Origin: a virus
Lineage: Duplodnaviria; Caudoviricetes
Length of the DNA: 64,000 nt
Strand: one strand, 5' to 3'
IMG/VR virus record: IMGVR_UViG_3300025867_000005
The position numbers and the translations under genes are program-made. Every line of letters starts with the position of its first letter. Positions within the stretch are counted from its first letter, which is position 1. Shown here one piece after another: positions 5,489 through 16,890 of the stretch. The notes beneath the pieces were generated by a model. It made no database searches and was not told where the DNA came from. It was given only the letters and a program-made list of their open reading frames with translations.

Positions 5489-5818
5489 ATGAAAACTGTT
5501 ATATATTGTAAAGAAGGCGTTGCCGTAAGCGATTTTGATGCCGAAGACTGGGTTGAACTATTCAAACGGGCAAAAGACGGAACAATTTCAAAAGTGAGTA
5601 CCAGTCTTCCCTTTGATATCATCCGAAGGGAAATTGTCAGGGAGAATATCTCATTCGAAAGCGTTGAGTTCGAGTTCGAAGGTAAGAAGATTCCGATCAA
5701 CAAGTACGGAGCAATACTTAATTGGCCTCGTGGGTTCTGTGATAAGTCCGGAGATGTTGCTGTCGATGTCATTCGTGAAGCCATGAAGATTCGTAAAGCC
5801 GAACGTGGAGAAAAATAA
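5489..5818 (+). CDS. hypothetical protein
   Basis: AGGA RBS, packed. Confidence 0.7.
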   Translation: MKTVIYCKEGVAVSDFDAEDWVELFKRAKDGTISKVSTSLPFDIIRREIVRENISFESVEFEFEGKKIPINKYGAILNWPRGFCDKSGDVAVDVIREAMKIRKAERGEK

Positions 5819-6292
5819 ATGACAAAGAAGAAGCAGATTTTGGAAGACCTTAAGAATTGCAAGCCGGAACAGGTTGGCATATTTATCCGCATGTATGGGG
5901 AAATCGGAGAATCTATTGAATCCGTGGTATCGGAACTTCCTTCGTCTAAAGTTTCTTGGGCTTTGAAACAGGTATAAAACACGATCAAGAAGAATTCTTT
6001 GCCCCATCCGCCTCCGAAACCCGTGCCTGTTGTTGACGAAAAGGTCGAATTTAAAAAGAGTATCGAAAACTTTGCGTTTGATTTGTCAGATAAAGATTTC
6101 TTCTTTTCCAAAAGAGAATCAGTAAGAAAGATCATTGGTGGTTCCGGGTCTGTGGTATTTGATTTTGAAGGGAAGTCGTATAGGATCGATTGGAACGGAT
6201 ATTGGGAAAGTTCGGATTGGTATGAATACCAAATTTCTGATGTCCATGACCGTGGCGGATTGAAAATTTCAGGAACGAGATATATTGATTAG
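5819..6292 (+). pseudogene. gene interrupted by one in-frame TAA (5975-5977)
   Basis: ATG 5819 runs 52 codons to ...WALKQV-TAA-NTIKKN... and continues in the same frame to 6292. Confidence 0.65.
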
Positions 6293-13923: not shown

Positions 13924-16032
13924 ATGAAAAACAATGAATATTGCTTTTTGAAGAGAATAGACATCCAGCTTTTAAACACAATCCTTTTCCGTAGGTTCAA
14001 CAAGATTCTAGTCAAACCCGAAGAAGTTACTGAAAAGAAAGCTGATACTACTTTCGTGGCTACGGCTTCTAAGAATCTAGAAGCCTATGGTTATTACTTC
14101 TCCAAAGATCTTTTTGAAGCGCTTGTAGAAGGAGAAGAAAAGCATGTAGTCAGCGTTTACACCGATATCACGCATAGGATTGAAAAAGTGAAAGGATGTC
14201 TATACCGTCCTTTTTATATCAACTTCCCTCAACAAGTGATGGAAGCAAGTGACTTGGAGTTGTTCCTTAACGCGATGGTACATTATTGGGGAGCCTATCT
14301 TTTTGATGATCCTTTAGTTCCAGATGTAGATGAAATCAAGCGTCAATCGTTGATGGAAGAACACCCGATGACATCAATTGGATTGGCTTGTGTCGAAGAC
14401 GCGAAGGATTTGTATGTCAGGCTTCTATCTTCAAAGACGGCTTGGTCAAATCAAGATGAAAATGATGTCAGCGTACTTTGTAAGCTTTTCCGGTTTCCAA
14501 AGATTGAAGAAATCCCTTGTAAGGAAAACCTAGCGACACTTGCGTCATTTTTCTCTGACCAAGCCGGGAGTCTTGCATACCTGTATCCATATTTCAAGAC
14601 GGTTACGGATGTCCTGCGTTATGCGGTTAAGCTTAGCGACGGAGATGTAAGCCTTGCTGAAAATCCTGTTTTCAAGAAAATGCACCGTAAAGACAGGATG
14701 CTTATTAAGGAATTGCTTAATCGGATTTGTGCTAAGGATATCGGTGTGGCCGCAAATGACATGTATCGGTTTAAGGAGTATTGGAAACGCCTTGCTGAAA
14801 AAATCCATCCTAACGAAAACGGCGGTTTTGAAAATTTGAAAACCGCATATTCCCTTTTGTACAAGAAAAGCGGTTTCAAAACGACTGCTTCTTCTATCGA
14901 AGAAGGAATTAAGAATCGGGATTGGGAAAAAGTTTCATCTGTCCTTTCGATTAGGCCTGGGGATTTCGCACGTAGGCTCGATCAGTTGATTCGCAACTTT
15001 GACCCTTATACTGTGTTGAACTTGTTCTTAGAAGTCGTTGAACAGGTATCTACGAACGTCCTGTTGCAGGTTATGAACCATTTCAAGAACAGGGATGGTT
15101 TGAGAGTAGCTATGCCTAAAGGCAGCGTAACAACGGCGACGATTCTGCCCGTGCAGGAAAATGATGTCGAAATGGAATGTTGCTGTGATGCCATTATTGG
15201 AATCTGTAAACAGACTTTGATTAAGCGTTTCAAAAAGCTTCCGTCTTTGGGTAAAGTTTATATCGATCCTTGCCTGATGGAATACAATGTTCCTTTCGGA
15301 ATGCGTAGTGCTTCTTCTACCGGTATGAAGACTTTGGTAAGAGGAACAAAAACGGCTTTAGAAGGAAGAAAATACTTGCGGTTCTTTATCTGGTGGAAGG
15401 GTGGAAACATTGATATTGATTTGTCAGCTTCCGCCTTGGATGCCAACTTCAACAAGGTAGCCGATATTTGTTTTTACAATCTTAGGGAACATTGGGCCTG
15501 TCACAGCGGAGATATTGTGTCAGCCCCTAACGGTGCGGCAGAATACATTGATATTGATACCAAAGAAGCCTTGAATCGTGGTATCAGATATGTCCTGATG
15601 TCTGTAATCAGCTACAGAGGTATCCCTTACAAGGATATTGAAGAATGCTGTGGCGGCTATATGGAAAGAGATTCGCAAAGAACGGGTAAGATTCATGAAA
15701 TCAAGACCGTTAAACAATGCTTCCGTCTGACAGGAGACACGACAAGCAATTTGGTAATGGCTTTCGACTTGATTGAAAACAAGATGGTTTGGATGGATAT
15801 CAGCCTTAAAAATAGGTTTGCCTATTGCAACACTGTCGGCAAGTCCGGTGCTGGCATTGTAAACGGTATCAAGGCGCTTGTCTGCGGTAAGCGTCCTAAT
15901 CTCTATGACCTTCTGACCATTCATGCTAAGGCCAGGGGTGAAATCGTAGACAGGAAGGAACACGCCGATACCGTCTTTGATTGTGAAGGCATCGGAACAC
16001 AGCACGAAAAGGTGTCTTCGGAATATCTATAA
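13924..16032 (+). CDS. TROVE(Ro)-like helical repeat + C-terminal TerD-domain protein (Prok-RING_4/SCO0854-type family, no RING evident)
   Basis: YRPFYINFPQQV, IPCKENLA, TVTDVLR, RPGDFARRLD; TerD part LRFFIWW..DIDLSA..HSGDIVSAPNGAAEYIDID. Confidence 0.8.
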   Translation: MKNNEYCFLKRIDIQLLNTILFRRFNKILVKPEEVTEKKADTTFVATASKNLEAYGYYFSKDLFEALVEGEEKHVVSVYTDITHRIEKVKGCLYRPFYINFPQQVMEASDLELFLNAMVHYWGAYLFDDPLVPDVDEIKRQSLMEEHPMTSIGLACVEDAKDLYVRLLSSKTAWSNQDENDVSVLCKLFRFPKIEEIPCKENLATLASFFSDQAGSLAYLYPYFKTVTDVLRYAVKLSDGDVSLAENPVFKKMHRKDRMLIKELLNRICAKDIGVAANDMYRFKEYWKRLAEKIHPNENGGFENLKTAYSLLYKKSGFKTTASSIEEGIKNRDWEKVSSVLSIRPGDFARRLDQLIRNFDPYTVLNLFLEVVEQVSTNVLLQVMNHFKNRDGLRVAMPKGSVTTATILPVQENDVEMECCCDAIIGICKQTLIKRFKKLPSLGKVYIDPCLMEYNVPFGMRSASSTGMKTLVRGTKTALEGRKYLRFFIWWKGGNIDIDLSASALDANFNKVADICFYNLREHWACHSGDIVSAPNGAAEYIDIDTKEALNRGIRYVLMSVISYRGIPYKDIEECCGGYMERDSQRTGKIHEIKTVKQCFRLTGDTTSNLVMAFDLIENKMVWMDISLKNRFAYCNTVGKSGAGIVNGIKALVCGKRPNLYDLLTIHAKARGEIVDRKEHADTVFDCEGIGTQHEKVSSEYL

Positions 16033-16062
16033 GCATAGGTGCTTCTGATCATAGAATGGTTG

Positions 16063-16628
16063 TTAGACCGACAAGGTACAGCAAAACAAGTTTTGCCGAT
16101 ACCTTGCAAAATAAGGAGTAAAAGTGGCTAATTTTGACAGTAACAGGTTTGCAAGTAAAAACCAGACCTTTGAGACACCAGACCATTTATTTCAGTTGGT
16201 AGATGATATTTTTCATTTCACTACCGATGTTTGTGCATCTGCTGAGAATACCAAATGTGCTAACTATTTTTCAGAAGAAAACAGTTGTCTGGATAAAGAA
16301 TGGTCTGGTGTTTGTTGGATGAATCCACCATTTAAGGACATGAAAAAGTTTATCAAAAAAGCATTTGATGAAAAAGAAAGGGCTGTTACAGTTTGTCTTA
16401 TTCCAGCGAGAACAAATACAAAATGGTGGCATGAACTGTGTATGAAAGGTGAAGTCTGGTTTTTGGAAGGCAGACCAAAGTTTAAGGGATGTATTCATGG
16501 TTTGCCTCAACCATTAGCTTTAGTTGTTTTTGGAAAAGGTAGTGGGGTAATGAAGTCTTTCAATATAGAAAGAGGTCTAACAACTGCTTCAACTCGACTC
16601 GCGGGTACGCTCGCGAGTTAAGCAAATG
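16063..16628 (+). mobile_element. integron gene cassette carrying an adenine methyltransferase
   Basis: 5' core site G|TTAGAC (16062-68) exactly complementary to inverse core GTCTAAC (16575-81); one ORF; attC at 3' end; only 2 CpG in ~450 bp of ORF. Confidence 0.85.
16124..16621 (+). CDS. phage Dam-like DNA N6-adenine methyltransferase (cassette-borne)
   Basis: TFETP, DVCAS..N.KC, WMNPPF, LIPARTNTKWW; GTG start after AAGGAG. Confidence 0.88.
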   Translation: MANFDSNRFASKNQTFETPDHLFQLVDDIFHFTTDVCASAENTKCANYFSEENSCLDKEWSGVCWMNPPFKDMKKFIKKAFDEKERAVTVCLIPARTNTKWWHELCMKGEVWFLEGRPKFKGCIHGLPQPLALVVFGKGSGVMKSFNIERGLTTASTRLAGTLAS

Positions 16629-16634
16629 ATAGAT
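16575..16634 (+). other. attC recombination site (60 bp)
   Basis: R'' GTCTAAC, 5-nt spacer, L'' CTTCAACT (extra base), second extra base A, GCG/CGC terminal hairpin, L' AGTTAAG, 5-nt spacer, R' G|ATAGAT. Confidence 0.85.
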
Positions 16635-16647
16635 AAGGAAGAACTAT

Positions 16648-16890
16648 ATGGAAATTGAAATTTCAAAGAAGATCGGTATAGAAATTGGTGACATTGCTTC
16701 TGCTATGGATGTTAAGGAAATGCTTTTTCTTATTTGTCGCGTAGCTGATAGGCTTAGCCTAGAACCTTATGGAGTTCGCCGAAACTTCGCTTATGGAGCC
16801 GCCGATCATCTGAGTGAAAACGGGAAGGCGTTCCTTGCGGAAATCCTTGCTGCTGAATATTCGAAAAACGCCTTGGGTAAAGAGGATTGA
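16648..16890 (+). CDS. hypothetical protein
   Basis: AAGGA RBS. Confidence 0.7.
   Translation: MEIEISKKIGIEIGDIASAMDVKEMLFLICRVADRLSLEPYGVRRNFAYGAADHLSENGKAFLAEILAAEYSKNALGKED

Follow-up and report, generated by a model that had tools for sequence, protein, structure and literature searches.

How does a single gene that carries the recombination boundaries of an integron cassette come to lie between two genes of a large phage? The stretch of DNA analysed here, referred to as the window, is 64,000 nucleotides long and corresponds to bases 228511-292510 of a 304,025-base virus genome that is rated as complete by CheckV; the replicon hosting the cassette is a jumbo phage. The cassette forms a single unit in the intergenic region between the genes for a 702-aa and an 80-aa protein, and its open reading frame (ORF) is oriented in the same direction as the flanking phage genes, all of which are located on the plus strand. 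The initial annotation had described a G|TTAGAC junction, a single ORF and a 60-bp attC site with bulged bases, whose R'' box pairs with the start of the cassette, and each of these anatomical elements is present where it had placed them (Table 1).

Table 1. Features of the cassette locus and its surroundings (positions refer to the window).
Feature	Position	Strand	Description
HD-domain gene		+	Precedes the 702-aa gene
702-aa gene	13924-16032	+	RING_SCO0854/TerD-like
5' flank	16033-16062	+	30 nt of phage intergenic DNA; last base is the junction G16062
Gene cassette	16063-16628	+	566 nt; from TTAGAC to the attC G; same limits in the L225 relative
Cassette leader	16063-16123	+	TTAGAC, CGAC, two-tier hairpin (~16073-16105), second GAY motif, RBS AAGGAG (16113-16118)
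Dam-type methyltransferase ORF (predicted)	16124-16621	+	165 aa, GTG start
attC	16575-16628 (16575-16634, 60 nt, with target-derived bases)	+	R'', L'', central stem, L', spacer, crossover G16628
R''	16575-81		GTCTAAC, followed by spacer AACTG
L''	16587-94		CTTCAACT; C16590 bulged; second bulged base A16597
L'	16616-22		AGTTAAG, followed by spacer CAAAT, G16628 and ATAGAT
3' junction half	16629-16634	+	ATAGAT; target-derived; forms the degenerate R' box GATAGAT with G16628
80-aa ORF	16648-16890	+	3' of the cassette; further small genes beyond
Second Dam-family gene	18345-18923	+	192 aa

A lone cassette with exact boundaries

At its 5' end, the cassette starts at G16062|TTAGAC, with TTAGAC occupying positions 16063-16068, and the upstream GTTAGAC is the exact reverse complement of the R'' box of the attC site. 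The proposed limits at 16062/16063 and 16628/16629 are borne out by a nine-cassette array in contig L039, in which the homology to the methyltransferase cassette of the window starts exactly at G|TTAGAC and stops at the attC G (..CAAATG). The unit comprises a TTRRRY start, one ORF and a terminal attC G, and it recurs in L039/L040 and L225. Given the score of its attC site in a covariance-model search (78.9 bits; see below), the complementarity between R'' and the cassette start, and the presence of the same unit in L039 and L225, the region from 16063 to 16628 is a bona fide integron-type gene cassette with a canonical attC site, as the initial annotation had proposed.

The cassette stands alone in its genome. 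A covariance-model scan retrieved no second attC site in the window or in the 304-kb genome, and neither a tyrosine recombinase (PF00589) nor a docking site of the kind found at array starts (model R2; see below) was detected in the 304-kb genome, so that the locus lacks the hallmarks of a complete integron, in which intI, attI and Pc lie beside the cassettes. The lack of an integrase, a docking site and a second attC, previously noted for the window, thus holds across the entire genome. With one attC in total, the phage also falls below the two or more attC sites without intI that characterize a CALIN, an arrangement that is present in the related G001, G002, TJE1 and L040. The 5' flank of the cassette did not match the attC covariance model (R1), and its score of 8.8 bits (E 0.5) with the docking-site model R2 derives mostly from the cassette's own TTAGAC; on these grounds, a degenerate array-start docking site was rejected as a candidate for the left flank. 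The flank sequence was found at no other locus and is missing from the relatives L022 and L169. Since the flank qualifies neither as an attC nor as a docking site, both junctions lie exactly at the crossover point.

The ORF contains 2 CpG dinucleotides in 451 bp, equivalent to an observed/expected ratio of 0.14 as compared to 0.98 for the window, and represents the unique minimum across the 64 kb, in exact agreement with the earlier reading of its composition. The cassette gene is compositionally foreign and, being the CpG minimum of the window, has not been ameliorated.

The ORF is preceded by a structured leader. When all 38 aligned leaders (alignment A7; cassettes from L001-L116) were analysed with RNAalifold, the consensus contained 11 predicted pairs, 11/11 of which showed compensatory changes, and the leader of the window proved to be 88% identical to that of an unrelated cassette in L039. 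The leaders associated with this attC family follow the consensus GTTRRRY, NGAY, outer stem, 8-bp inner stem, second GAY and RBS, and a second leader class, which features a short GC hairpin after NGAC, accompanies long attC sites. To our knowledge, classical integron cassettes have no comparable conserved structured leader after R', and a search of Rfam returned no family match for either the attC or the leader. Candidate roles of the leader include mRNA processing or stability, or a function as part of the recombination site. Scans for sigma-70 promoters and intrinsic terminators yielded nothing above background on the plus strand and no terminator-like T-run. As no promoter or terminator consensus stands out, and given that the ORF runs in the direction of its neighbours and is supplied with an RBS of its own (AAGGAG), it is presumably expressed by read-through.

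The attC site and its family

The bottom strand of the attC site folds with a free energy of -12.2 kcal/mol (z = -3.9), and its L'' box, CTT(C)AACT, pairs with L' (AGTTAAG), leaving an extrahelical C as well as the second bulged base, an A. Covariance modelling, which had been suggested as a check on the site, supports its assignment. Model R1, which was built here from 18 related sites of the family and is not the IntegronFinder/HattCI model, assigns it 78.9 bits (E 1.6e-16). In an 18-site alignment (A2), nine pairs show compensatory changes, a value that was reached in 0/500 shuffles, and slid controls collapse. Every column of the site can be aligned with attCaadA7 and with the two attC sites of Tetrasphaera phage TJE1 that have been tested with IntI1; model R1 also matches both of these TJE1 sites. 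The two bulged bases are kept in 6/6 aligned sites (top strand, C16590 and A16597; bottom strand, G and T). It shares with attCaadA7 the R'' box GTCTAAC, the 5-nt spacers, the bulged C of L'', the following CGAC with its bulged A, the L'/R' arrangement and the length of 60 nt. It differs from attCaadA7 in that its R' box reads GATAGAT in situ, a single deviation that we attribute to the target, in that R' is followed by a structured leader and in that the ORF continues through the attC.

IntI1 recombines TJE1_attC1 and attC2 with attI1 at an efficiency equal to that of attCaadA7 (Qi et al., 2023; PMC9892861). The closest relative of the window's attC in a blastn comparison with phage records is the site after orf3 of TJE1, the third attC of this phage, which is 93% identical over the 55-nt site alone and lies outside the tested set.

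A pattern scan for this type of attC identified 12 contigs in IMG/VR and 5 MAG contigs, and a slightly broader pattern retrieved 64 contigs from IMG/VR and over 120 from metagenomes, the latter figure being a lower bound, with the source samples being mostly anaerobic digesters and activated sludge. Behind ORFs that are unrelated to one another, this site (~55 nt, ~90% identity) recurs in upwards of 180 contigs of viral and metagenomic origin, which again is a lower bound. Its constant part is near-invariant, and variation is seen in the four free R'' bases and the 4-6 bases that follow G|TT. For each of the 14 sites that have sufficient sequence ahead of them, the R'' 7-mer has one exact complement, which lies 200-1060 bp upstream and reads G|TTRRRY, and in arrays of up to nine cassettes, each R'' complements the previous junction at most positions. 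This complementarity between R'' and the previous junction is the defining bookkeeping of integron cassettes. The number of sites per array ranges from many singletons in long contigs to four in G001, six to seven in a complete 47-kb phage and nine in L040, and the other attC sites retrieved without a junction constraint all read G|TT.

In a separate contig (L070, 6924-7500), a 174-aa ORF ends in an attC that is 93% identical to that of the window, and further upstream there is no cassette start to match it. This attC is possibly an orphan, or its cassette may have lost the 5' boundary. In other phages, we observed, ahead of the first cassette of arrays and of many singletons, a conserved inverted repeat of ~30 nt (GTTRRRY, 6 nt, RYYYAAY, 4-5 nt, G|TT), which is positioned after several different phage genes (alignment A5; L003, L004, L005, L007, L008, L012, L013, L040, L064, L071, L079, L083, L091, L098, L114, L121, L122 and L125). 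This docking site looks like an equivalent of attI. A docking-like site has been noted previously in the single instance of TJE1, where it was named a terminator (Qi et al., 2023; PMC9892861).

A predicted Dam methyltransferase with an attC-encoded tail

The cassette ORF encodes a predicted phage-type Dam N6-adenine DNA methyltransferase. Its product matches the Pfam Dam family PF05869 with 85.3 bits (E 5e-24; cut-off 28.1) and the equivalog model TIGR01712 with 76 bits, which is under the 97-bit cut-off of that model, and it contains all residues that are invariant in the family, including D35 and the NPPF motif. A sequence search of the PDB found no solved relative of the cassette methylase. 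Homologues have a length of ~148 aa, share 65-85% identity with the cassette enzyme and end before the attC. The ORF of the window stops within L' (TAA; TGA in L225), and that of the homologue in L039 stops in R''. Compared with the L039 cassette, the window shows a 7-nt indel before R'' (16554-16621 region), also common to L225, which places the usual R'' stop out of frame, so that the last ~15 residues of the protein are encoded by the attC.

The closest homologues (85% aa identity, equally CpG-poor; L034-L036 and L037-L038) are ordinary phage operon genes that overlap with their neighbours and are associated with neither a leader nor an attC. The comparison with integron arrays that had been recommended for the cassette identified a 76%-identical Dam homologue as the last of the nine cassettes in L039/L040. 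The operon context of the closest homologues hints that the cassette was built from a phage gene or, conversely, that the gene escaped from a cassette. The second Dam-family gene of the window, located downstream of the cassette, is 30% identical to the cassette enzyme, has a normal CpG content and is conserved in the relative L022. With this native paralogue, the phage would already methylate adenine and has gained a divergent second enzyme. Because the two proteins are only 30% identical, the cassette probably adds a second specificity against host restriction, with both the anti-restriction benefit and the methylation specificity being predicted from membership in the family. Like orphan phage Dam enzymes (PF05869, TIGR01712), the cassette product combines a family match with the NPPF motif and the core size and likely serves in restriction protection. 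Unlike these enzymes, however, it is encoded on a mobile cassette, as a second copy beside a 30%-identical paralogue, by a gene that is depleted in CpG and ends in an attC-encoded tail.

Search for an integrase

Searches for a recombinase that could have mobilized the cassette were extended to related phages and to bacterial carriers. G000-G003, TJE1 and G009-G012 gave no match to PF00589, and an integron integrase is missing from nine of the ten phage records searched as a whole; the tenth is a provirus, which possesses only a terminal integrase, 20 kb away from its attC. Similarly, five attC-carrying MAGs contained no match to TIGR02249 over the cut-off, the flanks of ~150 loci contained no Xer- or IntI-like ORF, and phmmer searches with Xer queries against 658 and 463 ORFs returned nothing genuine. 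One apparent integrase match turned out to be an ABC ATPase and was discarded. Since the phage has no recombinase, the recombinase would have acted in trans.

Relatives without the cassette

The nearest relatives of the 702-aa protein are found in L022-25 and L169 (70-71% aa and ~73% nt identity), which share the gene order of the window. In these contigs, the stop codon of the corresponding 692-aa gene is followed, after 7 nt, by a homologue of the 80-aa gene (56% aa identity), without a methylase gene or an attC. As the cassette is missing from L022-25 and L169, it represents an insertion or a lineage-specific feature. Compared to L022 and L169, the window contains a further 30 nt to the left and ~8 nt to the right of the cassette, and because the relatives are only ~73% identical at the nucleotide level, its breakpoints are not readable to the base and the empty site is approximated. 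For the window itself, these flank differences are what chiefly weakens the secondary-site reading. Moreover, the octamer ATAGATAA at 16629-36 resembles the end of the upstream gene, ATCTATAA at 16025-32, a likeness that could reflect a larger insert or a microhomology event. The comparison with related phages that had been proposed as a check thus confirms that the locus exists without the cassette and leaves the exact empty site approximate, with the additional 30 nt and ~8 nt on its sides. In IMG/VR, there was no match to the exact 32-mer expected for the empty site of the window or to the corresponding 25-mer for L225 (see below), and patterns derived from the 702-aa peptide revealed no close relatives. 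Among ten contigs with an identical 702-aa protein, the cassette is present in all three of the place groups listed (at least three samples), so that no polymorphism was seen; counts of contigs with and without the cassette obtained by exact-protein look-up were unreliable (5 versus 9-10 contigs).

A sister insertion with an exact empty site

A scan of IMG/VR for family attC sites with a non-T junction listed a single contig, L225, whose junction reads G|ATAATG (the window's own record was not listed). The Dam cassette of L225 matches that of the window with identities of 92% in the protein, 88% in the ORF DNA, 65% in the leader and 76% in the centre of the attC. The unequal divergence of leader, ORF and attC points to modular recombination. 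The cassette is bounded by the junctions ..TTATG|TTAGGC and ..CAAATG|ATAATG, and removal of bases 5552-6115 (564 nt) joins an ORF of 55 codons in frame to another 47 codons. When 1.8 billion representatives were searched with the piece downstream of the cassette, a 101-aa protein (P0242) was found that spans both halves. Its gene, a signal-peptide gene, is intact and 100% identical in the window's own genome (G000 203071-203373; L230 1501-1803), ~25 kb before the window, and L225 is syntenic with this region on both sides of the insertion (78-88% nt identity). The unoccupied target TTATG|ATAG at G000 203236/203237 is the exact empty site of the L225 insertion, and the L225 cassette lies exactly between the G and the AT of the 101-aa gene, with no duplication and no deletion. 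L225 thus shows everything expected of a secondary-site insertion, including a GATAA target whose exact empty site is known.

The secondary-site consensus of IntI1 is GWTMW or GNT (PMC4618277). The target in L225, GATAA, conforms to it in full. The target of the window, GATAG, agrees with four of the five positions of GWTMW and fits GNT, and both insertions read TG|ATA. Hence, related jumbo phages hold sister cassettes at two loci, both of them TG|ATA. For the G|AT secondary site postulated in the initial annotation, the precise TG|ATA insertion in L225 provides strong, if indirect, support, whereas the window's own empty site is only approximated.

Origin of the cassette at this locus

Taking these results together, we consider it probable that the cassette was inserted into the phage genome by conservative site-specific recombination at a G|AT secondary site, through an integrase provided in trans, and that the phage thereby gained a predicted methylase. 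In this process, a circular cassette would meet replicating phage DNA inside an infected cell, and a trans-acting integron-type integrase would exchange strands between the attC G (G|TT) and the TG|ATA target. As far as its identity and source can be inferred, this enzyme would most likely be the integrase of a host integron; since phage contigs account for most occurrences of the attC family, the cassette itself may have been donated by an array in another phage and not by a host integron. Lacking an attC or attI upstream with which to recombine, the cassette would stay at its landing site, effectively trapped. It would then be expressed by read-through, and the second, divergent methylase would protect the phage DNA from host restriction.

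An alternative that we regard as unlikely is that homologous or illegitimate recombination with the array of a second phage infecting the same cell brought in the cassette together with a little flanking DNA, and that a GTTRRRY-type GTTAGAT subsequently mutated to GATAGAT. Such an event would explain why the window exceeds L022/L169 by 30 nt to the left and by ~8 nt to the right of the cassette as well as the similar octamers at the two edges (16025-32 and 16629-36), and it is consistent with the overwhelmingly phage-borne nature of the attC family and with the modular recombination indicated by the unequal divergence between the window and L225 (65%, 88% and 76%). Furthermore, ATAGAT fits the pattern N-T-RRRY and is one base away from the common R' variant TTAGAT, a frequent start of the next cassette in this family that also follows the last attC of TJE1, and the 3' half of the window junction may accordingly be a mutated canonical R'. 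However, the left flank shows no significant similarity to an attC or a docking site and was found at no other locus, the left junction coincides precisely with the crossover point, and the sister insertion in L225 occurred scarlessly and with single-base precision at G|AT. Illegitimate recombination rarely achieves such precision. Still less likely, in our view, is that the locus is the remnant of an ancestral jumbo-phage array or docking site that was deleted in the relatives, with nothing having been inserted recently. In its favour, setting the polarity of the difference to L022/L169 requires an outgroup, the left flank, at 30 nt, has the length of a docking site and carries its few invariant columns, and the divergence of the Dam ORF between the window and L225 (88% nt identity) is similar to that of the backbone (78-88%). 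Against this scenario, the flank reaches only 8.8 bits (E 0.5) with the docking-site model, which has no match in the 304-kb genome, the ORF is a CpG minimum that has not been ameliorated, and a related lineage has the cassette at a different locus, while L022-25 and L169 lack it here. For the locus in the window, import and decay of an ancestral site jointly retain a minor but appreciable share of the probability.

That the locus contains no mobile element at all, and is instead composed of a native phage methylase gene and a hairpin of the terminator type whose likeness to an attC is coincidental, we consider to be extremely improbable. It is true that attC sites look like weak terminators, that Dam genes are common in phages and that the closest relatives of the Dam ORF (85% aa identity) are ordinary operon genes. 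Nevertheless, the same ~55-nt site follows unrelated ORFs in more than 180 contigs, R'' covaries with the cassette start, a terminator-like T-run is lacking, and relatives exist that are devoid of the whole unit. The insertion of a cassette at a G|AT secondary site by a trans-acting integrase remains the reading that we prefer.

Relation to known systems and wider implications

Integron cassettes in phages and secondary-site insertion are both phenomena that are already known. Integrase-less attC clusters (CALINs) have been described in virulent phages, including Tetrasphaera phage TJE1, with methyltransferases as a recurrent cargo of their cassettes (Qi, Rajabal, Ghaly, Tetu and Gillings, 2023; PMC9892861). 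Integron-to-phage gene flow, which the initial annotation had called rarely documented, is thus already on record, including for methylase cargo. The cassette of the window resembles these phage CALINs in its canonical attC, its co-oriented single ORF, the lack of a phage integrase and its methyltransferase cargo. In contrast to them, it has one attC, which is below the threshold of at least two applied in that study, it resides in a 304-kb jumbo phage, at a G|AT target outside any attC or docking site, and for its sister insertion the empty site is known exactly. A second point of comparison is the insertion of cassettes by IntI at secondary sites (PMC4618277) and at non-classical attG sites in bacterial genomes, the latter as described in the passage of PMC12901181 that cites Loot et al. 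(2024). As in these cases, a lone cassette lies outside an integron, with both junctions at G| and no target duplication; unlike in these cases, the target lies in a phage genome and not in a plasmid or chromosome, and the integrase is a postulated one.

The locus thus documents, at sequence resolution, a cassette that has naturally entered phage DNA at a place that is neither attI nor attC; as a natural example with two loci, it is unusually clean. It extends the published picture, which is drawn from a few phage isolates with arrays of two or more attC sites, to a singleton in a jumbo phage, a situation that is missed by array-based screens. It also suggests that phages can acquire anti-restriction methylases from the cassette pool gene by gene, and it sharpens the question of which integrase acts during infection, given that none was found to be encoded by the carrier phages.

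On a more tentative note, it is possible, although we would not presently favour it, that the window represents one node of a phage-centred cassette exchange network in digester and sludge communities. Such a network would link hundreds of cassettes through a common attC family and a conserved two-tier hairpin leader, with a conserved ~30-nt docking site at the start of phage arrays and a trans-acting integrase that is encoded by none of the carriers and moves cassettes between phages, including jumbo phages, and its cassettes would also land at TG|ATA in phage genes. If this were true, both leader and docking site would represent adaptations of the integron system that are specific to phages.

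The attC family also occurs outside phage genomes and, as L115 shows, circulates in bacterial chromosomes too. In L115 (466-1398), a bacterial contig that encodes a molybdate ABC transporter, a family attC follows an ORF resembling subclass B1 metallo-beta-lactamases, which scores 182.6 bits, below the 200-bit cut-off, and the next ORF encodes a GNAT acetyltransferase. Moreover, the arrays in L017 and L063, which combine long attC sites with short GC-hairpin leaders, may be chromosomal. In view of the bacterial context of L115 and these possibly chromosomal arrays, a bacterial reservoir of this attC family exists.
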